Of a stretch of 21,714 nt of DNA, positions 3,344 to 21,713 are shown one piece after another. The notes under the pieces were generated by a model. That model searched no databases. It was not told the origin of the DNA and was given only the letters and a program-made list of their open reading frames with translations. Position numbers and translations under genes: made by a program. The DNA comes from Rhizaria sp. SCN 62-66. Its lineage: Eukaryota. Numbering within the stretch: position 1 is the first letter of the stretch; every line of letters starts with the position of its first letter. The stretch is taken from the NCBI GenBank assembly GCA_001724265.1, contig MEDY01000275.1:62001-83714 (forward strand), written 5' to 3'.

Positions 3344-5521
3344 ATGGGCCAGAGCTTATCCTTTGATGTTGAGGATCACCGCGGTGAGTACTATATTGCG
3401 AGCTCTCTCAAGTCCGCCCTCATTGCGAAGATTGCGGACACACGCTGCTCCTTCGCTCCCAAGGTTCGTCCCTTGCTCCCCTCGTTATCCATCACCTCTC
3501 TGCCCACAATTACTTCAATCAACTCCGCGCTCACTGCTCTTTTGTCCTAACACTGCCTCGCCTTGTTTCTACTTTAAACCGCGTCGATCCACTCTGATAC
3601 CACTGACGCGCGCTGCTCCAGGGCTCCCGCGACCGCGCGCGCAGCCTGATCACGACGCTGCCGCAGCTCTACGCCGACGTGGCCTACCTCAACACGCACC
3701 TCGCGCCGCTCTTCACGGACCCGCATCACTCCCACGAGCCTGTCTCCGCGCAGAACCCCGTGCCCGCGCGCCGCTGGTGGTTTGAGGTTGCGTGCCGCGT
3801 CCCCGCGCGCGCCGCGCTGGCCATGGCCCGCGCCGAGGTGACCGACGAGGGCGAATGTTGGCATCGCTGCAACACGTTCGTCGTCACGGCCGCGCTCATC
3901 CCCGTCGCCGCCGCCGCCTCCGCCGCTACTGCCGCGGCCGCCGTCGCCGCAGCGTCCGCGGCTGCGGTCGCCAACGGCAGCGGCAGCGGCGTCCGTCCGG
4001 CCTACTCGAACAGCAGCTCTCTCGCATCTCCCAACAACAACAACGGTGGCGGCAGCGACGCGGCGGTGTATGCGCTGCGGCCCAGCGAGTTCTACGCCGT
4101 GTACCTCTTTATGCTGGACCAGTCCGTTGTCGTTGCCAGCCCAATGCACACGCCCGTCGTCGGCGCCACCGCCGCGCACGCGCCCGTGCCGCCCGAGTCC
4201 GCACACGCGACTGCTCATGAGTCTGCTCATGCCGCTGCTCATGTCGCTGCTGACGCGACTGCTGCGAGTGCGGGCGCTGGGAAGTACGTCGCCAGCTCTG
4301 CGCCCGCGGCTGCCGGCGCCGCGGCTGCGGAGGCTGACCAGGATGCGATCGCCATCATTCCCAAGTCAAGCGCTCTGGAAGAAGTGGAGGAGGAGGAGGA
4401 TGGTGCCAAGGCTAACGGCAAGGGCCAGAGCAACAACAAGAACAGCGGCAAGGACAAGGGCAATGGCAAAGGTAAGGGCAAGGGTGGCAAGGGCGGCAAC
4501 ACCAACAGTCAGGGCAATACGGACAGCGACGAAGGCAAGGACAAGAAGACTGAGTCTGCCGCCTCCGCCACGACGGCCACTGACGCAACGCCGGCGCAGC
4601 CTGAGCCCGCCGCCGAGCCCGCCGTTGCGTCGCCGTCGGCGTCGTCGGTCGTGCTGACGGCCGAGGAGGAGGAGGCCGCCGAGCTGTGCGCGATCTGCTT
4701 TAACAACAAGGTGTCGACCGTGCTGCCATGCTCGCACGCCTTCTGCAACGACTGCCTCGACGGATGGTACGAAACAGACTCAAACAACCCAAAGACACCC
4801 GTGTATCAATGAATATAACGCTTTGGCATATTATGTTGTTTTGATGCATCTGAAAACTCTCTCACATTTTTAATCTTTTCCGAAATTGTCTCCTTTTTGC
4901 GCTGTGTCACACAGGACCAAGAGCAACATGAACTCATCTAACAGCAACCGCAGCGCCCCCCTTGGCAGCGACCCCGGCGGCGCCGGCGACAGCGAGGCCG
5001 CGGAGGAGACCTGCTGCCCGATGTGCCGGGACCCCACGGCTGGCTCAGCGCACCGCTACGACCTCGTCGACAAGGACGACGGCCGACAGGTACGCGGGGA
5101 AACCAACCATGTTAAACGATCATATTTACGTGATTTGACGCTTTTATATTGAATTGTGAAACTGTTTTTACTTGTGTATATGTATCACACTTGCCAACGC
5201 TATTATGTCCATTTGTTTTCCTTTTTTATATTCCTGTTTTAGTTCGTGATTGACAACCTCATCGCCCGCCTCCGCGCCTTCATCAAGAAACGCCCGACCG
5301 TCGCCCTGCGTCCCGAGCCTGCGCCCGCGCCGAAGCCTGCGTCCATGCCCGCGCCCGCTGCTGCTGCGGCTGCTGCTGCGTCTGTCCCCGCGGCTGTGCC
5401 TGAGGCCGCCTCTCCGCCAGCGAAGCCCGACTCAGAGTCGGCGGTCGCTGCTGAGGATGTCAGTTTTTCCATGGATAACGACAAAAGCAGTGGGAGGGCT
5501 CCTGAGAGCGACACCAAGTGA
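3344..5521 (+). CDS. RNF141-like C3HC4 RING-finger E3 ubiquitin ligase, 4 exons (3344-3463, 3622-4766, 4915-5089, 5243-5521), 572 aa
   Basis: Three GT-AG introns join the ORFs in frame. N-terminus MGQSLS fits Gly2/Ser6 myristoylation, and RNF141 begins MGQ. Segments LYADVAYLN...WWFEVA...LRPSEFYAVY resemble the RNF141 N-domain as I recall it. RING is CAIC-x11-CSHAFCNDC-x37-CPMC. Ends in TGA. Confidence 0.8.
3464..3621 (+). other. Spliceosomal intron 1 of RING gene (158 nt, phase 0)
   Basis: Donor AAG|GTTCGT, branch-like CACTGAC at 3601-3607, acceptor CTCCAG|GGC. Splicing keeps the frame. Confidence 0.65.
4767..4914 (+). other. Spliceosomal intron 2 of RING gene (148 nt, phase 2)
   Basis: TG|GTACGA...ACACAG|G rebuilds the conserved RING Trp codon and joins the two halves of the RING. 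AT-rich. Confidence 0.85.
5090..5242 (+). other. Spliceosomal intron 3 of RING gene (153 nt, phase 0)
   Basis: CAG|GTACGC...polypyrimidine tract...TTTTAG|TTC. AT-rich and frame-preserving. Confidence 0.85.
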
Positions 5522-6046: not shown

Positions 6047-8398
6047 TCAGTTGTCCCACTCGGAGCCGTCAAAGCCGATGAAACCGGTGGCGAGGAAGAG
6101 CGGGAAGAAGTGCTTCTCGGGCAGCTGGTTGCACCAGTTCCATGCCGACGTGAGGCGGCCATCGATGCAGCTGCCGGCCTCGAAGTAGTTGTCGCCGCCC
6201 GATCCGTCAAATGCGAACTTAAAGAAGTCCGAGAGGATGACCCGGCGCGCTTGCTTGCGCGAGCCGTAAGCGGTGTGGATGAGCACCGGAAGGCGCTTGT
6301 TGGGGATGCTGTCCTCGTCCAACACGCGGTCCAGCCCCTTGAGGCACAACACCACGGGGGCTAGGATCTTGGCCACCTGCGGAGAAACAAAACAAACAAT
6401 AAAGAACCAACGAAAAGGAGAATTGAAAAAATATATGTGAGTCTGTAGCATAAATGTTTGTTGGCAATTGAGTGTTGAATGTGTCAATGATGTCGGAACG
6501 AAAATGTCTAAGAGTCATTTGTTTGCGGTTTTCAAGAGTGCTATAATATAACCATGACGTACCTGGTTGTACTTGTCAATGAAGGCGTATGCGTTGGGCA
6601 CGTTCTTGTCGCCCAGGTGGATAACCGAGGACCCGACCCAGTTGCCGGCCTTGACCTGGGCCGCGTTGACGAGACTGCGCATGGCGCGGTCGGTGCGCGG
6701 CGCCTGCTGCAGCCGGTGCAGGCCCTGGCCCGTCTGCGTCAGCGTGTACGGGTTCGGCGCCGACAGCCCCCCCAGCTCGCCGGTCACGTCCAGCAGGTCC
6801 AGCTCGGCGAGGGACCAGAAGCGGAAGAAGTCGTCGAGCAGGTCGCGCCAGAGGCAGAGCGACTGCAGCACGAAATGGTACTGCGCAGCGTGCGAGTGCG
6901 TCAGGCGCGCGCCGTCGGCGCCCTCGACGATGGCCAGCGATGTCGTCTCGTCGTTCGGGTCTGTCTGCACGGGCGAAAAGAGCGACTTCAGGTAGTCGAT
7001 CAGCGTGTTGCAGTGGTCGCGGCTGTCGTGCAGGAACGAGTGGTTGTCGGTGATCGAGTAGAGCGCCATCGACAGCGTTTCGCGGTCGATCTCGCGCGAC
7101 GTGTACCGGTCCAGCAGCTCCTTCATAGCACTGTCGCGGCACGTCTTGTCCTACTGAATCGCGATGCGGTCGCGCCCGTGGTGCGCGATGATCTGCGTCG
7201 CGACGGCCAGCAGCGGGTCCCTCAGCACGCCCAGCGCCTTGCGCTCCTCCAGCAGCGAGTACACCGTGCGCACAGGGCGGATGCAGGAGAAACCCAGCTG
7301 CTCGCGGACCTCCTCCTGCTGCGTGTCCTGGAGGAAGAACATGAGCTGCGCGTAGCTCAGCCGCATCTTCTCTGGGTTGCGGATCTTGTGGCGCCGTCCC
7401 AGCTCGAAGATGTTCTGGAAAAAGGGCGCGAACACAGTCAGGTCGGCGCCCGCGAGCACCTCGCGGCCCACGCGCGTGTCGCCGCCCGCGACGAGCGCGG
7501 TCAGCACTGACACAACCTCGAGCACGCACGCGCGGGTGCGCGCCGGCTTGCTCTTGAACTCCTTGTCGACGCGGTCGGCGTACGAGGAGGAGCGCAACAC
7601 ACCCTGCAGCAGCCGCAGCAGCTTGCGCTCCTCGTGCGTCAGCCGGAGCGGGATGAACTTGGACCGCTCCAGAAACCACTCCGGCTGCGGCATCTCGCCG
7701 CGCCAGAAGGCCGGGAGCGAGCCCGCGTCGGCGGCGATGCGCTCGGCGTGGCGGAGCGATTCCTTCTCGCTCATGGCGTCCACCGCGGCGGTCGACGCCG
7801 CGTCCTGCGCCGTCGTCAGCGCAGAGATCGCGGCCGCGGAGGCGGAGCTATTCGAGGTCGTCACCGCGCCGCTGCCGTCCGCCGCGTCGGCGTCGGCCTC
7901 GTCCACGGCGGCCGCCGCGCCGGGGGCGGCCGCCGCGCCGCCGAACAGCTTGGCAGGGACGGGCCGGGAGGCCGAGACCGGGAGCGGGCGGTGCAGCGCG
8001 CGACGACCCTTGCGGTGGTTGATCTCAAAGCAAAGCACGCAGAAGGCGTCGCCGCACTCGCCACACAGGGCGTCCGAGGGTGCAGCCTCGCACTCGCAGC
8101 AGACTGCGTGGTCGACGGCGTCGACGGCGCCGACTGAGGCTGCGGCAGCAGGGGCGGCGGCCGAGTCCGTCATGGGCTGCGAGCCCAGTAAGGAGACGCT
8201 ACCGGTCTCAGCGTCCTCGTCGTAGGCGGGCTCGGTGGACTGCAGGATGGCGTCGAGCGTGCCGCCCTGGCTATTGCTGTTCTTGGAGTTCTTGAGCAGG
8301 AACTTGAGATCGAAGTACTGCTGCTTGACGTTCATGTAGTCCGTCGCGCCGAACTGGCTCGGTCCGGAGCCGCCGTAGAAGGAGAATCCCCCAAACAT
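6047..8398 (-). CDS. UPF0652/DUF2009 family protein with N-terminal B-box zinc finger, 2 exons (8398-6563, 6376-6047), 721 aa with in-frame TAG at codon 416
   Basis: Family motifs ERSKFIPLRLTHEERKLLRLL, RRHKIRNPEKMR, GARLTHSH, WVGSSVIHLGDKNVPNA and FDGSGGDNYFEAGSCIDGRLTSAWNWC. ORFs 7151-8398 and 6515-7126 share a frame and are separated only by TAG plus 8 codons. Ends in TGA. A possible acceptor AG at 8409-8410 leaves the true start slightly uncertain. Confidence 0.9.
6377..6562 (-). other. Spliceosomal intron of DUF2009 gene (186 nt, phase 0)
   Basis: On the - strand CAG|GTACGT...TTGTTTCTCCGCAG|GTG, giving FIDKYNQ|VAKIL, which matches the family motif. AT-rich. Confidence 0.9.
7991..8101 (-). 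other. B-box-type zinc finger within DUF2009 gene
   Basis: CCECEAAPSDALCGECGDAFCVLCFEINHRKGRRALH. Confidence 0.85.
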
Positions 8399-9265
8399 CC
8401 GCGGGGGTCTGCAGTAAAGAGCGCAGGCAAGTGGTTAGGAGGAGTTCGGAGGGATGAGCGAAGTGAAGCAAACTTCGGTGGTGCATGAGATTGGTGAGTG
8501 CGCTTAAAGAGACTCTGTAGACAGATAACCGCAGGAGTTTGCGGGTTTATTCACTAGTTTATATAAAAAACCACAATTTAACCCAGATTCAGTTCGGACG
8601 TTTCATATAACGACGAGTGTCTCCCATAATGGCGCGTCTACGAAAGTCAACATCTCGTTCGTCCTCTTTGTACGCCAACCACAAACTGCACAGCTTCACT
8701 GTGATTATACTTTTTTTCACATGTATACACACCAGGATCATTAAAGATCATGCTTATTTCGAGATATAATATCAAAAACATAATTTCCTTGGTTAAAATA
8801 GATAATTTATTTCAGACTCATGTGGTTGTAACATGTCGGGCTTGTCGAGGAACCCAAGTGCGACGCATCAGTAACGAGCAGTCGCATGGAGAGAAACAAA
8901 CAAAGACACACAGACGCAGCCCCTGTAAAGATCAGATACTGGACGTGCTTTGAATAGCAGTAGAAACAATCAGGATAGCTGATATACATAGAAAACAACA
9001 GTGACAAGGCATTGCACAAATTGGCACCAACATGTACACATCAAAGCAGTTTGTTCACATGACAAGAACTACTCCCAACAAAACATTCCAAGACAGAACA
9101 AAGGATATAACAAGGAGAATCAAAGCAAGAAAGGACGACTTCGACGAAAAAGAGGTTTGGATTTTAGATAACAGTGACACTCACGATGGCAAGCACGGGC
9201 AGCGACTTACCTCGTCACAGTGCACACACATGCCTTCGTTCGTGACGGACGACGACGTGCGCCGT

Positions 9266-12200
9266 TCAGTCCCACAGGAACGAGATGATGACGCGCATGC
9301 CGTTGCTCCAGTAATTCCTCTCGCTGACGGACCGCGCCTGCAGGTCCAGCGTACGCTCGGCCGTGATGATTGAGAAGCACAGGTCTTCATCGACGTCCTT
9401 GGCGCTCTTCTGCATCACCTTGGTCTTCTTGCCGTCGACGACACGCACGAGCTGCTTCGTGAACACCATCTTGCCCGTACCCCAGTCAATCGACACGGTC
9501 CGGTTGTCCTGCATGATGCGCATCACGACCATACGTTCGTGCGGTTTGCCCAGGCGCCCGTGCTTGAGGAACATCTCGCCCACGAGGGCCGCGCGTACGA
9601 ACTCAGTCGCAATCTCCCAGTTGTTCCGCTGCTCCTCCTCCTCGGCCGTCAGAATCTCGCCATCCTCCTCATGCTCCTCCTCGGCCTCGCGCTCCGCCGC
9701 GGCGGCCGCGGCGGCGGCGGCGGCGGCGGCCGCGGAGGGCGCGGGCAAGTTCTCATACTCGAGCTCACGATGCCCGGCGTCGTGGTGCCCCTCGTCCTCA
9801 TCCTCGTAGTCGCCCTCGCCGTCCTCGTCCTCGTAGTAGCCTTCGTCGTCGGCTTCGTCCTCACCCAGCGCGGTCCCGTGCCGGGGCCCGCGCTGCGGCG
9901 GCTGTTGCTTGCCGCCGCGCAGCTCGTAGTCGATGGGGGCGGCCGCGTCGGCCTCGGTCCGCGGGTCGCCCAGCCGTGCTAGGTGCGCGCGCTTCTCCTC
10001 GCGCTCCGCCGCAGTCTCGGGCGCTACACCGCCGTTGACGCCGTTGACGCCGCCGCGTCTGCCACGGTTGGCGTTGGCGTTGTGCAGCATGTCGTCTTCG
10101 TCCACCTCGGGCTGGTGGGCGCCGGCGCGCGACAGCGAGTGCTCGCGGTCACCGTCCTCGCCCAGCGCCTCGGCGATCGCGCTCGCCGCCGCGGCCGCCG
10201 CGGTCATCAGCGCGTAGTCCTGTCCGCGCGCGGGGGGGCGATCGCCCGCGCTGGGGCTGCGCGGCGCCGGCTGCTGCTGAGTCTGTTGCTGCTGCTGTTG
10301 TTGCTGGTGCTGGGTGGTTTCGAGCACGGGGATGTTGTCGAAGCTCTCGTCGAAGCTCGAGTCGTGACCGCCCACGGCGGCGCCCGCTCTCGCTGCGGCG
10401 GCGGCGGCGGCGGCTGTGACCGGAGAGCGCGCCTGCGGCCGCGGGCCGAGCGCCTGGTGCTGCTGCGGCAGCGGAGGCGACTCGCTGCGCCGGGCGCCGT
10501 CGCCGCCGCCCGCCGCGGGCTTGTCGCCGTGGCCGTGGCCGTGGTGCTGCTGCTGCTGGGGCGTCTGGGGCTGCTTCTTGGGCTCCATCGTCATGTTCAT
10601 GTGAGGTCGGCGCGGGCTCGCGATAGTCACCGCGGGCGCGAGCTTGAAGTGCGCGCCCGCGCCGCCCGCGCCGTCGGCGTCGTCGTCCTCGCAGTCGCCG
10701 CCGTCCTCCTCGTCGTCCGAGAGGCCCTGGATGAGCGCGTCGACCTCGCCCAGGATGTCCATGTGCCGTTGTGCAGCCGCGGACTTGACGCCCCCCCCGG
10801 CGTGCGCCGCGCCGCTCGCGTGGCGCGCCTCGGCGGCGTCCTGCATCGCGTGGAGGTCGCGCTCCTGGCGCAGCCCGCGCAGCCGCGCGTCCGCTTCAGG
10901 ATCCGCAGCGGTGGTTGCACCAGGGGTAGGCGCAGGCGCAGCAGCGGCAGGAGCGGCGGCAGCGGCTGCAGGAGCGTTGGCGTGGGAGCGCGGGGCCAGC
11001 GCGGCGGCGGCGGCGGCGAGCGCAGCGCCAGTGGCCGCCGCGGCCGCCGCGGCCTCCGAGGTCGCGACTGCGGCGGGCACCGCGGGAAAGACAGGCGCTG
11101 GCGGGCGATATACCGAGAAGGCGACGGTGCCCGCGGGGACGGTGGCGACGAGCTTGGGTAGCAGCGCCGTCAGCGCGGGCTCGCGCGGGAACGCGGCAGC
11201 CGCGGCGGCCGTCAGCGCGGGGTGCGGCACGTTGCGCACGGCGCGGAGCTGGTCCGCAGCGGCCTGCTGCACCGCGGCGACCGCGGCGGTCAGCCACCCC
11301 GCCTCAGGCAGGAACGGCGCCGCGGCGGCCAGCGCGGCGGCGACCGCGGCCAGCGCGGGCAGCACGTGCTGCGCGGGCGCGCTCGCCGCCGCCGCCGTGG
11401 GCTTGCCCGTGATGGTCACGGCGAAGGGCGCCGCGGGCACCAGCGCCAGCGCGGTGAGTGTGGCCGCGACGAGCGTCTGAATGTAGGCCGCCTCCAGGTG
11501 GTCGAGCGGCTCAAAGCCCAGCAGCGGGCGCTGCGACCACGACGCCGGCGAGCGGGCCGCGGCGTAGGCGCGCGCGGACTCGGCGAGGGCGCCGAAGACG
11601 GCGGCGGCGGAGGACGTCGACAGCAGATGACATTGCGCGGCGCCGGCCGCGGCGGCGAGAACGGCCGCCTCGGACCCCGCGGCGGCAACCGGGATGCCCA
11701 CGGTCGCCGTAACCACGTCGCCCCCCGCGCCCGCGGCGGCGTCCCCAGCGGCGGGGAGCAGCGTGCTGCGGGCCGTGGCGAGCACGCGCGCGACGGCCGT
11801 GGTGGGGTCAAGCGGCCACCCCAACGCCGCGGCCTGCGCGGGCGCCGCGGCGTGCGCAGTGGCCGTGGCGGCGGCGCCGCGCAGCGCGGCGGCGGCCTGC
11901 AGCAGCGGCAGCCAGAGCGGCGCCTTGGCGGGCCCAAGCGCGGCGGCGGTGCACGCGGGCAGGCTCTCGGCCAGCGCGGCGGCGTCGTTGAGCGCCAGGT
12001 CGCACAGCGCGAGGCCGACATGCGCGTCCGCCGAGACGGCCAGCGCCACGGGCGCCGCCGCGTCCGCCGCCGCCGCGCCCGCCGAGGCCGAGCTGGCCTT
12101 GGCGGCAACGTACTTGACGGCCTTGTCGAAAACCTTGCGCGCCTTGTCGTGCAGGCGCAGATGGTGTTGCGCCCAGCCGATGGCCACCACGGCCGAGATG

Positions 12201-13531
12201 TCGTTCTTGACGGCCGCGAGCGTCTGTCCGACCAGCTTCAGCACGCCGGCGCCGGGCACCGCTGCGGGAGCTGCTGAGTCAGCAGCGGCCGCGGCCGCGG
12301 GCGGGAGGACTGTGAGCACGGTGGCCGTGGTGGCGAGCCGGGCGGCCCGGACCGTGAGTGCGGCCGACGCGTTCTCGGTGTCCGCGACGGCCTCGATCAC
12401 GCCGCGGAACGCGCCCTGCACCGCGGTGACATACGCCTCCGCCGCGCCGCTGCTGCCGGCGCCGCTGGCGTGGCTGGGGCGGGCGAGCGCGTCGAGGAGC
12501 AGGATGGAGCGCGAGGAGACGAGCGAAAGCGCAGCGGCCTCGCGCCCCGGACCCGGCGTGGCGGCGTCGGCCTGCGCGAGCGCGCGCGCCTTGTCCCACT
12601 GCGAGAGCCCCGAGGCGAGCAGCACGCGTGCCTTCTCCTCGGCGTGCGGCGTGAAGCCCGGCGCGGCGAGCTGGATGCGCTTGAGGTCCTTGAGCGCGTC
12701 GACCCACCCGCGGTCCACGGCGTGCAGCCGCGCGCGCAGCAGCAGCGCGCCCGCGTCGCGCGCCTTCGCGGACCCGCGCGTAAGCGCCAGCGCCGTCGCC
12801 ACGTGCGCGCGTGCAGACGCCACGTGCGCGGCGGCGGCGGCGGCGGCGGCGGTCGTCGCGGGGGTCGAGGCGGCGCCCGCGGCGGCGGCCGGGTCGGTGA
12901 GCGAGATGGCGGGCGGCAAGAAGGCCAGCGCGGGCAGCGGCAGCGCCTCGCACGCGAGTGCAAGCGCGACGTCGGCGGCGAGCGCGGGCGCGGACGCGTC
13001 GGTGGCAGGCGACTTGGCCGCCACGCGGTCCGCGCACTGCTTGGCCTTGTCGAGCTTGCCCGTGAGCAGGAAATAGCGCGCCACGAGCGCGAGGCCCTGC
13101 AGCGAGGCCGCCTTGAGCTCGCGCTTGAAGGCCTCCTTGTGCGCGGGCGTCGCCGGGAGCGTCTTGTCGCGCGTGGTCGACACGGCGGCCAGCGCGGCGG
13201 CGCGGGCGCTGGGGGCCGCGGGCGCGTCCGCGACCAGGGGCGCGGCCGGGTCGGCCATCGTCCTCAGCAGCTGGCGCGACTGCAGCGCGTCCGGATGCGC
13301 GAGCGCGCGCCAAAACCGCAGCGCATCCGTCTCGGTTGCGGTCAGCGGCGCCGTGGCGCCGTCGGCGGAGGCTGCCACGGAGCCCGCCGCGGCGGCAGCG
13401 AGAGCTGCGTCAGCGACCGAGTAGGCGGCCGCCTTCATGTCGTGTGAGAGCCAGTAGAACGTCTCGACCAGCGCCGGGTGGGTCAGCGTAGGCACCACGA
13501 CGGCGGACGGGTCCACAGCTGACGTGGCCAT
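9266..13531 (-). CDS. TPR protein resembling the N-terminal half of IFT139/TTC21, fused through a disordered acidic/Gln-rich linker to a C-terminal PH domain (1421 aa, no intron needed)
   Basis: Uninterrupted ORF with first ATG at 13531 (MATSAVDPS) and TGA stop. Helical blocks such as ARYFLLTGKLDKAKQCADRV, ALLLRARLH...WVDALKDLKRIQLAAPGFTPHAEEKARVLLA..QWDKA, IGWAQHHLRLHDKARKVFDKAV and AHVGLALCDL follow the order I recall for TTC21B. PH domain at the C-terminus. Confidence 0.75.
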   Translation of the reverse strand: MATSAVDPSAVVVPTLTHPALVETFYWLSHDMKAAAYSVADAALAAAAAGSVAASADGATAPLTATETDALRFWRALAHPDALQSRQLLRTMADPAAPLVADAPAAPSARAAALAAVSTTRDKTLPATPAHKEAFKRELKAASLQGLALVARYFLLTGKLDKAKQCADRVAAKSPATDASAPALAADVALALACEALPLPALAFLPPAISLTDPAAAAGAASTPATTAAAAAAAAHVASARAHVATALALTRGSAKARDAGALLLRARLHAVDRGWVDALKDLKRIQLAAPGFTPHAEEKARVLLASGLSQWDKARALAQADAATPGPGREAAALSLVSSRSILLLDALARPSHASGAGSSGAAEAYVTAVQGAFRGVIEAVADTENASAALTVRAARLATTATVLTVLPPAAAAAADSAAPAAVPGAGVLKLVGQTLAAVKNDISAVVAIGWAQHHLRLHDKARKVFDKAVKYVAAKASSASAGAAAADAAAPVALAVSADAHVGLALCDLALNDAAALAESLPACTAAALGPAKAPLWLPLLQAAAALRGAAATATAHAAAPAQAAALGWPLDPTTAVARVLATARSTLLPAAGDAAAGAGGDVVTATVGIPVAAAGSEAAVLAAAAGAAQCHLLSTSSAAAVFGALAESARAYAAARSPASWSQRPLLGFEPLDHLEAAYIQTLVAATLTALALVPAAPFAVTITGKPTAAAASAPAQHVLPALAAVAAALAAAAPFLPEAGWLTAAVAAVQQAAADQLRAVRNVPHPALTAAAAAAFPREPALTALLPKLVATVPAGTVAFSVYRPPAPVFPAVPAAVATSEAAAAAAATGAALAAAAAALAPRSHANAPAAAAAAPAAAAPAPTPGATTAADPEADARLRGLRQERDLHAMQDAAEARHASGAAHAGGGVKSAAAQRHMDILGEVDALIQGLSDDEEDGGDCEDDDADGAGGAGAHFKLAPAVTIASPRRPHMNMTMEPKKQPQTPQQQQHHGHGHGDKPAAGGGDGARRSESPPLPQQHQALGPRPQARSPVTAAAAAAAARAGAAVGGHDSSFDESFDNIPVLETTQHQQQQQQQQTQQQPAPRSPSAGDRPPARGQDYALMTAAAAAASAIAEALGEDGDREHSLSRAGAHQPEVDEDDMLHNANANRGRRGGVNGVNGGVAPETAAEREEKRAHLARLGDPRTEADAAAPIDYELRGGKQQPPQRGPRHGTALGEDEADDEGYYEDEDGEGDYEDEDEGHHDAGHRELEYENLPAPSAAAAAAAAAAAAAEREAEEEHEEDGEILTAEEEEQRNNWEIATEFVRAALVGEMFLKHGRLGKPHERMVVMRIMQDNRTVSIDWGTGKMVFTKQLVRVVDGKKTKVMQKSAKDVDEDLCFSIITAERTLDLQARSVSERNYWSNGMRVIISFLWD
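9275..9600 (-). other. PH domain (Mcp5/PLC-like subtype)
   Basis: GEMFLKHGRLGKPHERMV...IDWG...VVDGKKTKVM...CFSIITAERTLDLQARSVSERNYWSNGMRVII, with the invariant C-terminal helix Trp and a basic beta1-beta2 loop. Confidence 0.9.
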
Positions 13532-14259: not shown

Positions 14260-15864
14260 ATGTCACAGCCGAACAACGCGCGCTCCGGTGCCCCGCGGCC
14301 GGCGCTCGAGGATGACGACGACGACGTGCCGTCTTTCATCGCCATCTTGTCGGAGCAGGGCACTCTGCCACCCCGCCCTGCGCCCGCCCCCGCGCCCACC
14401 GCGGCGTCGGTCTACGCACCCGCGACTGGCGCCGTGGAGGGCGCGTTCACGGCGCCCGCGGTGACGCGCGCGTTCTCGGCGTTGTCCGACGCAGACTACA
14501 CGTCCTCACCCACCTACGGCAACAAAAACGGTCACCTGCACGCCTACGGCAGCCCTGGGGGTAGAAACGCTGCCGGCGCTGCTGCCGGCGGTGGCGCGAG
14601 TCTGTCCCCGCCCCGCCCCGCCCCCGGCCGCGCCCCGCGGTCCCCGCGCGGGCTCACGCCGCGCTCGCCGCCGAGCGACCGTGAGCAGCTGGGTGACCGT
14701 GAGCAGTTGGGTGGGGTGGTCGGCAGCGGCGCCGCGGTCAACCCCGACGACGGCGCCAGCGCGGCGTACCCCAACGCGGCGGGCAACATCAACGTGAACC
14801 TCTTCGGCGGCGGCAAGCCCGCCCGCGCCCGGAGGGACGATGACGACGACGGCGTGCCCGCGTTCATCCGCATCATCTCCGACGATATCCCCGCTGCGGC
14901 GGCTGCAAAAACGACTATGAAGGCTGCGGTTGACGATATCCCCGACTCAAGCTCGCTCGATGGCTCTGGCAACGGCATCCCGACCCTCCCCGGCCTCACT
15001 GCCACTGCCGCTGCTTCCGCAACTGCGACGATCGTGGCCGCGACCGCCGCTGTGCCGCCGCTGCTGATCTACGCGCCCGCGCCGGCGCCGCTGCCGAGCG
15101 ACTACGCCGCGCCGCTGGTGTCCTACCACACCTCCGCTCCGCGCCGCCGTGGCAGGCGTTCGGACCCGGCCTCGGCGTCCTCTGCGGCCTCCCTCAACGG
15201 TGACGACTTTGGCTCCGGGTCTAGCGCGGCCGCGGCCGTCGCCGAACACATTCCACCGGCGCAGCTGCTGCTGCCCGGCGCGCTGCCCGCGCAGCCACGC
15301 GTTGCGCTCGCCTTCCCACCCTACACCGCGCCCGCGGTCTCCGTTGGCGGCGGCAGCGGCGGCGGCAACGGCAACGCGCAGTCCGCCGCGTCGGCCGCGT
15401 CGGCCGCCGCCGCCGCCGAGGCTGCCGCGGAGGCCGCCGAGCGCGCGGAGCCGATCGTGGTGTACTCGAGCGCGGGGCTGCGCGGCGATGAGGTCCGCGG
15501 GCGCCGCCTGCGTGTGTGCGCGCTGTCCATCTTCCTCCCGCTCCACATCCTCCTCGCGCTCATCGTCTTCTTCTTCCTGCCCTACTCCATGGACGCCGGC
15601 GGCGACGCGCGCTACGACGACCTGGCGCTCGCGGCGTGCGGCATCGGCGTCGCGGCCGCCGTCGCCGTCATGTGGCTACAGTCGCCGCTGCTGCTGGGCG
15701 TCTTCGTCGTGGCATACGTGCTCGACGCCCTCATCAACCTCGTCCGCTTTGTCAATATCGTCCAGTTCCTCGGTGTGCTCGTGCAGCTACTTATTTGCTA
15801 TCTAATTGCGGGGTATGGGGCAACGTTGCAGCCGTCTTGGGTCAAGCTGTAGCCCGCTGCATGA
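14260..15864 (+). CDS. Membrane protein with long disordered N-terminus and about 4 C-terminal hydrophobic helices (534 aa if TAG 15850-15852 is read, otherwise 530 aa)
   Basis: ATG at 14260 after a pyrimidine-rich leader. Hydrophobic segments ALSIFLPLHILLALIVFFFLP, LALAACGIGVAAAVAVMWL, LLLGVFVVAYVLDALINLV and IVQFLGVLVQLLICYLIAG. End reads CTG TAG CCC GCT GCA TGA. Confidence 0.8.
14677..14712 (+). repeat. 18-bp tandem duplication encoding DREQLG x2
   Basis: gaccgtgagcagctgggt followed by gaccgtgagcagttgggt (one synonymous mismatch). Confidence 0.9.
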
Positions 15865-16737: not shown

Positions 16738-19700
16738 ATGTCTGCGTTGGGATTTGCTTCAAGGTCGAGTAGCTCTGCTCGCGCCCGCCCACCAGGTGCG
16801 TCTACCTCGCCAGTTTCGCCTGCGAGTCATACGGTGGCCCGCGCTGCGGCTGACTCTTTCTTCGTGTCGTGCCTTGCTGACACGCTATCTGCCGCTGCTG
16901 AGTACATCATTGACAGCCGCAAGCGTTATACGCCCCTTGAAGCCATCAATGCTGCCCTGACCTCGCTCCCGGCCTCCGCAGCAGCCCCTGCACAAGTCAC
17001 GCAATCTGCCCCCGCCGTCTCTGCCGCCCTCGTCTCTGCTCCTGCTTCTGTCCCGGCTCCTGCGCATGTCGCCGCCTCGGTGCCGGTTTCTATTGTTACT
17101 GCTTCTTCTGTCCCAACCACTGCCTCCGCCTCTGGGCTGTCGTCCGCGGCCACGGGCTCCGCCGCGGTCGCCGCGCTGGCCGCGCTGCCGTGGGACGCGC
17201 TACTGGACCCAGCGACCTACGGCGGCGCGCGCGGCGGAGGCGGGCTCGACCCCGAGACCGCCGCGCTGCTCACTCTGCTGCGTGACGAGGCGCAGGCCGC
17301 CAACGCATCTCCTGATGCGAAGACTGCGCAGGCTGGCACGAGCGCGGGCACAAGCGGCAACAAGTGGAGCAGCAAGAAACATGATGACGTGCCTGCGTTG
17401 CTTGCTGCGGCGCCTGGGAGCGACGTTCTGCCCGCGCCCGCGTTTGTCCCTGCCAAACCCACTTTGCTGGCGTCCTACGACGCTTCTCTCCTTGCCCTCA
17501 TCAACAACAACGACGGCAACGCCAACGTTCGTAGCAGCAACAACAGCAGCACCGCTGCGTCGGTCGCCGCTTCTGCGGCTCTGCCGCTGCCGCTGCCGCC
17601 GCTGCCCCCCGCGGCGGGCACGGCGGCCGCCACGCTGGCGCGCGCAGCGCTGACCGCGGCGGACTCGGCCCTGGCGGCCGCAGGCGTGCAGCACGCCACC
17701 GACGCGGCGCTTCTGGCCGAGGCGGCACGCCGCGCGGACCGGCTTAACGCGCAGGTCGCCGCGCTCGCCGACGCGCAGGCCGTGTGGGACGACCGCGAGG
17801 GACTGCGCGGCGTCGAACGTGGCGCCGCGGCGGAGAGCTGGGAGGCCGCACTCGCCGCCGCCACCGAGGCCGGGGCGCGGCTAGCTCGGTCGGAGGCGCG
17901 GGAACGCGAGCGGCTTGCGCGCGCGCAGGCGCGGGACCAGCTGGGCGGCGAGCGCGCGCGGTGGCGCCGCGAGCGCAGGCGCGTGCGCGCGCTGGTGAAG
18001 CGGGCGAACGAGGCGCGCGTGCTGCTCGTGGCGGGCGGCGACGCGGCCGAGGTGCTGGCCGCGCTCGATGGCGTCGCCGACGACGCGGCCGCGACCGAGG
18101 CCGAGGACGCCGAGCGCAGCAACGGCTATGAGGCCAACGAGCACGATGATGCTGAGGAGGAGGACGACGGTGACGCCGACGGCGACGACAGCGGCGACGA
18201 CAGCACGCTCGAGGAGACGGCGGCCGCCGTGCCCGGGGTGCCTGCGCGCGCGCCGCGCGTGGCTCGGCTGCAGGCACGCATCCGCGTCCTGCTCTGCGAG
18301 ATCGCGCGCCTGAACCACGAGGACGTGGCTCTGCCGTACAGCGAGTACGACGCGCTGCTTGCCTCGCTCACGCCGGCGGGCTCGACGCAGGCACTCGCCG
18401 CCGCCGCGGCCGCCGCGGGCGCTGCGGGCGCGGGTAGCAACGGCTCCGCGGACGACGCCGCGAACGAGACGCTGACCCGGGCCGCGAACGGCGAAGGGTA
18501 CTACGGTGTGCTGCCGTTTGCGGTGCTCGAGCTGGCAGAGGAGGAGGCCGCGCTGCTCACGACGGCGACCACAGCTGCGACGCTTAGCAGCGGCAACGAC
18601 GCCGACGAGGAGGCCGCGCAGCTCCTCTCTGCCGGTGGCCTCTCCGAGGAAGTTCTCGCCGTGTTTGCCCACCTTAACGCGCAGCGCGCTGCTGTCGCCG
18701 CGGTGCTCGATGCCGCCGACGCTGCACCGGCCACGTTTCCCGCGGCGCACGGCGGCGCCGCGGCGCTCCCGGCACTGCCCAAGGTCACCCCGCCACCCCG
18801 CATCGGTCTGCGCGCGCAGAACACGCTGCTGCGGCTCGCCCTGCGCGCCGTGCAGCGCCGTGGCGGAGACCTGGCCGCCGTCGCCGCGACCACCGCCGCA
18901 GTCGCCGGCCGCAGCGGGCGGTTCGCGGCCTCCGAAGCTGAACTGCGCCGACGGCTGCACAAGAGCCAGGCCGCGCTTGCGCGGTCCGTGTCGCGCGAGG
19001 CGATCGCGGCCGCCGCGGCCGAGGCCGGCGCGATTGCGGCCGCGCGCGAGCCGCGCCTGCTGGCGTCGCTGCGCACGTGGCGGGCCCGTGCGCGCGTGAT
19101 GCACGGCGATCGCGCGCGGCTGTGGGCAGTGGTGGACTCGGTGCTGGGCGCGCAGGGCGCCGTGTCGACCGCGAGTCAGCCCGCGCTGACCACCGCCGCG
19201 GGCCTGCGCAAAGCCGTGCAGGGCGGCTGGGACGCGCTCGCGAGCCTGGGCGTCGCGCTGGGCACCGCGGACGCGGCGTTCCCCGGCGTGCGCGACCCCG
19301 TGTCCGCGGCCAAGTTCGCCGCCGGCACGGTGCGGCCCATCACGGGCGCCTGGGGCGGCGGCGTGGGTGCCAAGCGCAGGCCCGTCCACATTGCGGAGAG
19401 CGCAATTCCGGGTACGCACATGGCCATGACAGCTGCTGATGATCCGGGCGAGTATGCTGCATACGGTGATGAGTATGAGGGCGACTACGATCTCGACGCT
19501 GAGGCCGCTGCGGACGCCGTTGCTGAGGCGGAGTACGAGGCGTATCAGGCCGATCTCAATGCCACCGTGGCCAGCAAGCCCGTTGCCAAGCCTGTCCCTG
19601 TTGCGCTCGCTGCTGGCGGACCGGCGACTGCCGCTGTTGCCGTCGACAGCACCACGAAGCGCACTCCCAAAGCGAAGACTCCTCACGGCAAGGTCTCAAA

Positions 19701-21261
19701 GGACGCTGCAGAGGCGGATGGCCTGGACGAGATGGACTCGTACATTGACTCACTGCTCGCTTACAACGTTGACGGTGATGCTGATGAGGAGCACGCTAAC
19801 GCCGACGCAGCACATGATGATGACGGCGGCATTGAGGGCACCGGCGACGGCAGCGAGAGCGACATTGATGCTGGCATTGCGTTCGACGCTTTGTCCCCCA
19901 TCATCACGCGCAACCCGCTGATGCCACGCTCTGCTGTTCGCTCGCCCCACCACAGCACTGATAGCTACCACACCTCTGTCGCGCCTAGGAGCAGTACTAC
20001 TGACGGCGGGTTCAAGCCGCTGACTCCGCGCGAGGCCAATATCATCTTGTTTGGCACTGCGACCCCCGGCGGCTCCCCCAGTCACCGCAAGCAAGATGAG
20101 TCCGAGTCCGCGCCGGCGCCGGCGTCGCTGTCAGCCGCTGACGTCGGTTTCCCCGCTACGTCCGCGCAGCCGCGGTCCACGGCGTCGCTGCTGCGCACGC
20201 ACCCGCGCACCGCGGCCACTGCGCGCAGGGCTGGACAGACTTCGCTCACGATCACCGAGGCGATCATGGCGCAAGATGAGGCCGATGCAGCTGGGTAGTC
20301 ACAACGTGCCACCAGTGGTGTGCGTTCGCGCGGTCGCAACGAAGCTGACTCGCCCCGCGTCACTTCTCGCTCTGCTGCGAGTCAACAGCAACAGCAGCAG
20401 CAGATGCAGTCACCGCAACAGTCGCAGTCTCCGTCGCGCCCGCGCTCGCGCTCTCGCCTGCGCTCCCCGTCCGCCCACTACGACCTCACCAGCGCCGACG
20501 CTGGGGATGGCGACGTGTCGGACGCTTGCACCAACGCGGCAGTAACGGCTGCGGTCGAGTCCACGCTGGTCGTGCACACGATGCTCGCGCCGACGCCGCC
20601 CGGCTCCGCGCGCCGCAGCCTGCGCGACGTCTCTCTCAGCGAGCTCGCCGCCGCGCAGGCCGCCTCGACCCGCTCACACGCGCGGTCGCTGTCGCCATCG
20701 TACTCGCAGCGCGCAGCGCTCAGCGCCGTGGGCGGCGCCGCGGCGGCCCCTGTGCGCCGCGTCTTCGTCGGCCCGCCCGGCGCCGCCACGCTCGTGACTA
20801 TGGACCCCGCGGACAGCCGCAGCATGTCGCCCGCGCGCGGCACACATGGCCGCCCCGGATGGGCCTCGGGGCCGCCCACGCCCGCGGCCGCCGCAGCCGC
20901 TGCAGCCGCCGCGACGGCCACGATGGGCTCCAGCAGCGCGCGCGCACGCAGTCGCAGTAGCAGCCGCGAACGCTCCTACGGCGCGGCTGCGAGCGCCAGA
21001 GTCGGTGGTGGAGTCAACGACACGGGCGAGAAGGGGTATCTGAAGACGACGTCGGCGTTGCGCACGCGTGCTGAGGAGAACGTGGCGCTGATCGAGGATA
21101 TGAAGCGACGCGAGGCGAAGCGTATCACGTCCAGCAGTCGGCGCTCGCAGTCTCCGGCTACTGCTGCTGCTCATGGTCACAGTCAGCAAATGGCCGTGAC
21201 GGCAGCGAGCAACCGTACAGGAACACCTCTCAAGCAGCAGCAACCGATGTATTGGTGGTAA
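16738..21261 (+). CDS. Large Ala-rich hypothetical protein with predicted coiled-coil segments and Ser/Arg/Pro-rich tail (1507 aa with in-frame TAG at 20296-20298)
   Basis: First ATG at 16738 (MSALGFASRS). ORFs 16600-20298 and 20320-21261 are in the same frame, separated by TAG plus 7 sense codons, with no AT-rich spacer. E/R-rich helical stretch at about 17700-18030. Ends in TAA followed by an abrupt drop in GC. Confidence 0.75.
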
Positions 21262-21323
21262 AGATACGCTAAATTTAACAAAATTAACCTAACTACGAAC
21301 GTAACCATTTATTTACCCGTGAT

Positions 21324-21329
21324 AATAAA
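21324..21329 (+). promoter_or_regulatory. Possible polyadenylation signal AATAAA for gene 16738-21261
   Basis: AATAAA about 60 nt after the TAA, in the 263-bp spacer between convergent genes. Could be chance in AT-rich DNA. Confidence 0.3.
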
Positions 21330-21524
21330 CAACTAGCAACACATTCATGCTCGCACAAATCTTGCATACGCGTAATCGGTAGATGAAAGGAGTAGGAATT
21401 TTCTAATTGCAATCAGAATGTATTAGAGAGAAATGTACAAGCACGAACACGCCGCGAGGCGCGTTTGGCGGTGACCGAGGTCAACACCGTACGACTGCAG
21501 GTTTCTAAGAGCAGGTTAGGGCAC

Positions 21525-21713
21525 TTAGAAGCACTTGCGGTGGACGATGGTGGGGCCGGACTCGTCGTACTCCTGGCGGGTGACCCACATGGTCTGGAAG
21601 GTAGAGAGGTAGGCAAGAATGGAGCCACCGATCCAGACGGAGAACTTGCGCTCCGGGGGCGCGATGACCTTGATGTTCATCGACTGGGGAGCAAGGGCGG
21701 TGATCTCCTTGGA
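21525..21713 (-). CDS. ACT: Actin, C-terminal 62 aa (gene enters from the right edge)
   Basis: Manual translation: [62 protein letters not shown] followed by TAA (21527-21525). Confidence 0.97.

Follow-up and report, generated by a model that had tools for sequence, protein, structure and literature searches.

An in-frame UAG in a flagellate protist points to a variant nuclear code in which UAG is probably read mainly as glutamate

Introduction

The window analysed here, a stretch of 21,714 nucleotides (G000:C275:62001-83714), contains two adjacent open reading frames on the forward strand that are separated by a single TAG. This raises the question of whether they are two genes or one and, if one, which residue is inserted at the TAG. 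An earlier note on this DNA had joined both frames into one gene and proposed glutamine as the decoded residue. To our knowledge, UAA and UAG are nearly always reassigned jointly.

The host assembly is eukaryotic and comprises 34.9 Mb in 714 contigs. It belongs to a flagellate protist with spliceosomal introns and 18 matches to dynein heavy chains, spread over about 11 loci. The runs in which the genome is best represented are labelled as bioreactor and wastewater metagenomes, while runs X6-X13 contain small shares and are uninformative for habitat.

Results

The frames on both sides of the TAG belong to one gene

The bases quoted in the earlier note occupy 20287-20325, and the in-frame TAG lies within them as reported (Table 1). 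Beyond the TAG the frame stays open for exactly 320 codons, where about 320 had been claimed, so that the TAG is 960 nt short of the gene end. A contig from another study (X3, DNA) covers 18796-21547 (2752 bp) without a single difference, and a contig of a poly(A) RNA library (X5) agrees over 20162-20517 (356 bp) with neither differences nor gaps. The contig of a divergent strain (X4; 19501-20569, 1069 bp) differs at two positions, one at 19872 and the other unlisted; thus, the TAG at 20296 is not proven for X4. The evidence from X5 and from a further run, X6, consists of contigs, in which DNA carry-over is possible and which cannot prove a single transcript.

Table 1. Positions of the features discussed; bare coordinates refer to the window.
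Feature	Position	Strand	Remarks
RING-finger gene	3346..5521	+	with introns, stop TGA
Exon 1 of B-box + DUF2009 (PF09418) gene	6563..8401	-	PF09418 residues 257-627, E 6e-121
In-frame TAG within DUF2009, residue 428	7151..7153	-	PF09418 match spans the TAG
Intron-less gene, 1421-aa protein	9266..13531	-	weak TPR/ARM and C-terminal PH-like matches, stop TGA
TAG four codons 5' of TGA 15862-15864, end of membrane-protein gene	15850..15852	+
Target gene, intron-less, 1507 codons	16738..21261	+	ATG 16738 to TAA, read through TAG
In-frame TAG, codon 1187, sense (Glu most likely)	20296..20298	+	residue from genome-wide evidence, not from the site
True stop TAA of target gene	21259..21261	+	followed by 264-bp spacer, GC 0.42
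Actin stop TAA	21526..21528	-	gene end set by homology
eRF1 gene, in-frame TAG in N domain	L039 / G000:C63:103370-103699	-
tRNA(CUA) gene	L136:1489-1561, G000:C84	-	pattern search, ARAGORN, Rfam 58 bits
tRNA-Tyr(GUA) gene	L016:2709-2793	-	11-nt intron
Thg1 gene	L163:990-2600	+	in-frame TAG
18S rRNA gene	L042:1501-5945		four group I introns
1198-codon frame	L132:3-3596, G000:C681	+	GC3 0.49, internal duplication

The composition of the region argues against a gene boundary. Between the genes of the window lie six spacers of 264-1299 bp with a GC content of 0.34-0.50, whereas GC never falls below 0.54 in any 50-nt window from 19900 to about 21250; the observation that AT-rich spacers mark the gene boundaries and that none occurs at the TAG therefore stands. 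GC3 of the target gene is 0.78 on the 5' side of the TAG and 0.67-0.89 on its 3' side. A codon model, seeded on the genes of the window (the target gene included) and refitted on about 400 kb, was applied to six blocks near the TAG and favours the target frame in five, namely four distant ones and the one just before it. The 60 codons right after the TAG, rich in Gln, Ser and Arg, score -12.4 in frame versus -7.1 in one antisense frame.

Neither a spacer nor a donor site is found at 20296. Among 164 donor-like sites GTACG accounts for 50, and GTAGT, the sequence at the target TAG, for one. This count and the ungapped X5 contig speak against splicing of 20295-20315, named beforehand as an outcome that would refute the joined gene. 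Programmed read-through would likewise produce a C-terminal extension past an in-frame UAG, but the host differs from such systems in several respects: comparison of the 3' contexts across TAG sites yields no common motif, a search at three TAG sites gives no stable 3' hairpin, folding of the 3' context of the target TAG shows no gain in stability over shuffles (z -0.40), and a cognate tRNA is present. We therefore do not regard this as programmed read-through, in line with the earlier remark that the 3' context matches no known read-through motif.

The product of 16738-21261 is Ala-rich and of low complexity, with acidic patches and a C-terminal part rich in Ser, Arg and Gln, and the 1507-aa protein is probably largely disordered. 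Its Pfam scan returns no family at E<=1. When searched against 1.84 billion representatives, the C-terminal 466 residues match only their own two public fragments, and the protein is an apparent orphan. Public gene calls cut the gene at the TAG into P0258 (1154 aa) and P0257 (285 aa).

The ungapped contigs, the lack of a donor at the site and the genome-wide use of TAG as a sense codon described below support the union of the two ORFs. Since UAG is sense genome-wide, 16738-21261 is read as one protein with a decoded residue at position 1187, and the UAG at 20296 is almost certainly translated as an amino acid. The target TAG itself carries no regulatory marks; its value is that of a pointer to the code.

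TAG is a rare sense codon throughout the genome

In-frame TAGs interrupt intact eRF1, Thg1 and DUF2009 genes that are collinear with their homologues, and further ones are located in five kinase exons, a CIMR repeat, a PARP zinc finger and a ubiquitin domain. DUF2009 aligns without a gap to 119 homologues, with R 53, K 48, A 8, S 4, Q 3 and E 1 in the TAG column. Contigs of X3, X4 and X6 all carry the TAG at 7151-7153, despite five differences that X4 and X6 show within 80 bp. Moreover, the X6 contig crosses 7151 unchanged and departs from the genome at the exon edge, as spliced RNA would.

Among 142 kinase matches, nine contain a lone TAG, one a lone TAA and four mixed stops. Five of the nine lone TAGs are exonic and four are intron acceptors, while all TAA and TGA triplets in kinase matches are intronic. 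The TAGs of the kinase matches on L116, L117, L121 and L122, the dynein hits on L128 and L130 and the 'RYVPF' site on C660 were dropped as intron sequence. A first filter for in-frame stops based on GC3 was also dropped, as it picked mostly antisense frames.

Among 85,401 confidently coding codons, TAG occurs 11 times, TAA twice and TGA never. The underlying 853,898 fetched bases overlap in part and include loci picked for holding TAG, which makes the TAG rate an upper figure, and both TAAs and perhaps two of the TAGs resemble wrong-frame calls. TAG thus represents at most about 1 in 8,000 codons, similar to ATA (9) and rarer than TTA (23), and it is missing from dynein frames of 4,500-5,100 codons.

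TAG is depleted at gene ends, which were called by the codon model and mostly not by homology. A strict filter leaves 18 TAA, 17 TGA and no TAG (n=35), and a relaxed one 47 TAA, 42 TGA and four TAG (n=93). After removal of 44 relaxed ends with a nearby donor-like motif, 26 TAA, 22 TGA and one TAG remain (n=49; P=1.3e-4 versus the 21% share of TAG among stop triplets of AT-rich DNA). This single TAG end, on L121, has an in-frame TGA downstream. Overall, TAG precedes an in-frame TGA by fewer than 20 codons in two genes versus about 0.24 expected, namely at 15850 of the window, which is not among the called ends, and on L121 (minus strand, near 4400).

These two cases, together with the rarity of the codon, speak for a dual role as in Condylostoma or Blastocrithidia, in which UAG is sense inside genes and a stop near the 3' end. 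We regard such a role as highly improbable, since 48 of the 49 filtered ends are TAA or TGA, an in-frame TGA lies 4 and 17 codons downstream of the two near-end TAGs, respectively, and the target TAG lies 960 nt from its gene end. The TAG at 15850 is either a sense codon near the gene end or a stop still in use, and both near-end TAGs represent either relics of former stops or dual use. Some termination at UAG possibly persists.

Under the standard code, the TAGs would have to be assembly errors, nonsense alleles, hidden introns or two-gene boundaries. Random substitutions in a GC3-rich genome would be expected to generate TAG more often than TAA or TGA, and four of the nine lone kinase TAGs are indeed intron acceptor sites. 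However, the same TAGs recur in further runs and in a strain with differences close by, the affected eRF1 and Thg1 genes are intact and collinear apart from the TAG, the genome has a CUA tRNA gene, TAG is scarce at gene ends, and 20296 has neither spacer nor donor. The standard code is therefore hardly tenable, and the evidence supports a genome-wide code change rather than gene-specific read-through or splicing as the cause.

The release factor eRF1 is altered in its stop codon recognition motifs

The TAG in the eRF1 gene recurs in a JGI contig (L167). With residues numbered by offset to the human motifs, the protein displays GSS instead of GTS (T32S) as well as G57S and T58K, while L69 is kept. 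T32S and G57S are absent from all 118 eRF1 homologues, and T58K is present in one, the closest relative P0129 (84% identical), in which GTS and G57 are intact. A metagenome scan for further relatives yielded four loci, one from the same organism and three about 61% identical. According to the cited sections of two reports, Thr32 touches the G of UAG, and the Iotanema reassignment goes along with T32G (PMC5304391; PMC9161772). T32S and G57S, with T58K, may thus weaken the recognition of UAG. As the TAG lies within the eRF1 gene itself, the release factor is made only if UAG is read through, which would constitute negative feedback if any UAG termination remains.

The only CUA tRNA gene found resembles tRNA-Glu

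Pattern search of the genome revealed a single tRNA gene with a CUA anticodon, which was missed by Rfam scoring of 63 of 506 candidates and by two tighter patterns (gap, D-loop). ARAGORN labels it Pyl on the basis of the anticodon alone, and Rfam gives a full cloverleaf. The gene has no encoded CCA, a T-run downstream, an intron-bearing gene on one side and a formin-like gene on the other.

tRNA(CUA) is identical to host tRNA-Glu(CUC) at 47/73 positions, to the next host tRNA at 40/73 and to the host Gln tRNAs at 33/73 and 29/73; host tRNA-Glu(UUC), a partial pattern match that by eye is unlike tRNA(CUA), was left out of this comparison. tRNA(CUA) and tRNA-Glu(CUC) have the T stem and acceptor pairs one to five in common. 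At position 32-38, tRNA(CUA) has C32-A38 and Glu(CUC) has C32-C38. In the cited part of a human suppressor study, C32-A38 boosts UAG suppression by an engineered tRNA-Glu more than 20-fold, while U31-A39 and A30-U40, both present in tRNA(CUA), are less favourable (PMC12204705). The same source reports that in human cells GluRS charges tRNA-Glu(CUA) and the native tRNA equally well, and that the optimised form inserts about 95% Glu, the other residues reported being Lys and Met (PMC12204705). The D-arm marks described for E. coli tRNA-Glu (U11-A24, U13-G22, no base 47; PMC9976931, cited section) also occur in host tRNA-Gln and are therefore not diagnostic for Glu. A CUA derivative of tRNA-Gln, sought by BLAST and patterns, did not appear; BLAST returned only five identical CUG copies.

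The D and T arms of tRNA(CUA) are nearer to bacterial tRNA-Glu than to the host Glu tRNAs, while its acceptor stem is of the host Glu type. Its identity to five bacterial tRNA-Glu, chosen by BLAST and hence biased upward, is 45-54/73, with the best value for a Paenarthrobacter plasmid tRNA-Glu. Judged by these similarities, the gene may be of horizontal or organellar origin. The tRNA-Tyr(GUA) gene is the only clear intron-bearing tRNA gene seen.

Conserved columns favour glutamate at UAG

The TAG sites under the strongest constraint fall in Glu columns. In Thg1, whose gene is otherwise intact, the TAG stands in place of the E in the SDE motif, a column occupied by E in 4/4 PDB sequences and in 9/9 homologues covering the site (13/13 in total). 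This site corresponds to the conserved carboxylate E77 (PMC6471195, PMC3701042, cited sections); E77 does not bind Mg (PMC3701042), so that Gln might be tolerated here. The TAG column of eRF1 (n=118) holds E 106, D 11, V 1 and Q 0, with V in the closest relative. Summed over ten Pfam domains, with five of the 20 residues scored, the bits are E 631.9, K 626.7, Q 626.0, Y 609.5 and L 605.5. The lead of Glu over Gln is thus 5.9 bits, of which 3.9 come from Thg1 alone, and Lys is best at five of the ten sites. An invariant-Gln column with a TAG is absent among the ten sites.

Leu and Tyr were discarded, as they score 26 and 22 bits below Glu, respectively, in the ten domains. The columns of Thg1 and eRF1 make Trp via A-to-I editing unlikely, and the RNA-library contigs are unchanged at the TAGs. 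PDB alignments of CaMK and the PARP zinc finger, with K/Y and S/G at the site, respectively, were uninformative.

The sequence surroundings of TAG are more Gln-like. A model of sequence context, with 2965 Gln and 4250 Glu sites as its training set, was applied to 31 hand-picked TAG sites, one further site being excluded because of a coordinate error. The mean log-ratio is +0.49 for TAG, compared to +0.42 for Gln and -0.34 for Glu sites, and none of 20,000 pure-Glu resamples reaches the TAG mean. This mean is carried by four Gln-rich sites, the other 27 averaging about 0, and a mixture fit gives 91% Gln-like contexts with an interval of 41-100%. Further, CAG stands opposite TAG in three paralogue or repeat comparisons, many TAGs lie within poly-Gln tracts, and NEK1 has Q at the TAG site of NEK. 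With contexts that are Gln-like on average, Gln or mixed decoding retains some probability. Thus, the Gln-like context described for the target TAG holds on average genome-wide, whereas the residue deduced from it does not agree with the tRNA body and the Thg1 and eRF1 columns, which favour Glu.

CAG is converted to TAG by a transition and GAG by a transversion. In a rough count that includes off-target contigs, the strain differences of X4 comprise 49 CG-TA transitions versus 14 CG-AT transversions, an excess of about 3.5 to 1, while the codon counts are 2766 for CAG and 3895 for GAG. If UAG encodes Glu, about half of the TAGs would then be expected at former Gln sites, given that one third to one half of Gln-to-Glu changes are tolerated, and a share of about one half falls inside the fitted interval, 1.8 bits under its peak. 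Many TAGs may therefore have arisen by C-to-T change from CAG at sites tolerant of Gln to Glu, an origin that would explain the poly-Gln contexts. The reverse works less well, as decoding as Gln requires both that a tRNA with a Glu body be charged with Gln and that Gln stand at an invariant Glu position.

Gln is thus probably not the residue at UAG, contrary to the earlier proposal. A code of the translation table 15 type, as in Iotanema, would account for the poly-Gln contexts, the three CAG paralogue sites, the context model and the Q in NEK1, and it is a recurrent outcome of UAG-only reassignment in the cited part of the literature (PMC11687900). We nonetheless consider it very unlikely, because the sole CUA tRNA is Glu-like (47/73 versus 33/73 and 29/73), the searches found no CUA derivative of tRNA-Gln, Q is absent from the Thg1 and eRF1 columns, and none of the ten domain sites is an invariant Gln.

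Alternatively, UAG might be ambiguous, with Glu inserted via tRNA(CUA) and a sizeable share of Gln added, either by GlnRS charging of tRNA(CUA) or by first-position wobble of tRNA-Gln(CUG); the target gene would still be one ORF. This would suit a TAG that stands both at an invariant Glu column and in Gln runs, and a codon under such strong avoidance (no more than 11 occurrences in 85,401 coding codons). Moreover, the five-copy host tRNA-Gln(CUG) has U28:A42, which according to a preprint raises read-through of UAG in yeast as well as in trypanosomes (bioRxiv 10.1101/2023.06.19.543857), and E. coli amber suppressors derived from other tRNAs can accept Gln (PMC9976931, cited section). On the other hand, a cognate tRNA should beat a near-cognate one, the engineered human tRNA-Glu(CUA) inserts about 95% Glu with Lys and Met reported for the rest (PMC12204705), and pyrimidine:purine and other 28:42 pairs stand at 1:1 in Gln(CUG) of standard-code ciliates (bioRxiv 10.1101/2023.06.19.543857). 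Transition bias (49 versus 14 in X4) can account for the Gln contexts by itself. Ambiguous decoding is accordingly unlikely. A more specific form, an undescribed code in which a tRNA-Glu(CUA) with a bacterial-type D arm, possibly of horizontal origin, reads UAG ambiguously as Glu and Gln, appears quite unlikely.

Further features of the host genome

The Thg1 gene encodes an Ala-rich stretch of about 170 residues that is inserted between palm region and C-terminal motif. Because the tRNA-His genes carry A at -1 and A73, G-1 must be added enzymatically, which suggests that Thg1 is needed. The 1198-codon frame on L132 combines ubiquitin and Peptidase_S74 (phage tail chaperone) domains and contains two in-frame TAGs, both opposite CAG in a repeat or paralogue; it is possibly derived from a mobile element or virus. 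Tandem single-ubiquitin genes at L106 (G000:C3:11235-14019), L107, L109 and L110 are divergent from canonical ubiquitin and carry an extra N-terminal Met-Ser and a three-residue C-terminal tail. Some Rhizaria have single-Ser insertions at polyubiquitin junctions (PMC13746701, PMC12930898, cited sections); the Met-Ser start would fit such an insertion, the loci read holding no assembled junction. The 18S rRNA gene on L042 is divergent and lies on a separate contig, its link to the host being assumed; its first insertion holds a stretch of about 500 bp with a candidate homing-endonuclease frame.

Discussion

The best explanation of the TAG at 20296 is, with good probability, a variant nuclear code in which UAG stands mainly for Glu while UAA and UGA are stops. 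This reading draws on TAGs in conserved genes, the near absence of TAG from gene ends, the CUA tRNA gene and the altered eRF1, all of which are genomic observations. With its tRNA-Glu acceptor and T stem and C32-A38, tRNA(CUA) would be charged by GluRS, and UAG would be decoded and UAA not. The position of UAG among the rarest codons may result from very GC-rich coding DNA and from one tRNA gene serving it.

Known codes share parts of this arrangement; published statements refer here to the cited sections. In Oligohymenophorea sp. PL0344, UAG is likewise Glu and tRNA-Sup(CUA) is most similar to tRNA-Glu; in contrast, UAA is Lys, UGA is the retained stop and there are ten CUA genes (PMC10553269), compared to UAA as the commonest stop, one CUA gene found and very rare UAG in our host. 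The peritrich and Blastocrithidia codes (tables 30 and 31) also read UAG as Glu, but they read UAA as Glu too, and in table 31 both codons also serve as stops. UAA is not Glu in the host, where it is the commonest stop at gene ends.

Iotanema spirale, Hartmannula sinica and Trochilia petrani reassign UAG alone and keep UAA and UGA as stops, as seen here (PMC5304391, PMC11687900, PMC9161772). Iotanema eRF1 is altered at the same threonine of GTS, T32G there and T32S here (PMC5304391). These table 15 cases differ in that UAG is Gln and the cited sections report no cognate tRNA found (PMC5304391, PMC11687900, PMC9161772), and UAG is present in about 80% of genes in the two ciliates, compared to at most about 1 in 8,000 codons here. 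The rhizarian exLh (Sainouroidea), possibly of the same supergroup, also shows UAG-only reassignment with UAA and UGA stops (PMC5304391). However, its UAG is Leu (PMC5304391), a residue 26 bits below Glu in the host, and its eRF1 carries L69A with intact motifs (PMC5304391), whereas the host eRF1 keeps L69 and is changed at T32, G57 and T58.

In the sections cited, UAG-only reassignment to Leu is described for exLh and three ciliate MAGs, to Gln for Iotanema, Hartmannula, Trochilia and Protocruzia, and to Ser for Scotinosphaera (PMC5304391, PMC11687900), while UAG=Glu appears only where UAA is also reassigned (PMC10553269; tables 30 and 31). None of the 27 tables of Biopython 1.87 combines TAG=E with TAA and TGA stops, and we found no report of this combination in the open-access literature, supplements aside. 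It seems to be an uncatalogued genetic code.

A practical consequence concerns annotation, as genes with in-frame TAG are cut short or split in public calls (P0007, P0253, P0257 and P0258). If the ambiguous Glu/Gln reading were true, UAG would be tolerated in poly-Gln tracts and at invariant glutamates alike, and the release factor's own gene would depend on ambiguous decoding. For the code favoured here, with UAG read mainly as Glu, one genome offers a candidate cognate tRNA together with eRF1 changes at T32 and G57 that are absent in the closest relative. The rarity of the codon suggests that the reassignment may be recent or poorly tolerated. The organism thus provides a direct test case for the discrimination between UAG and UAA by eRF1 and for codon capture versus an ambiguous intermediate.
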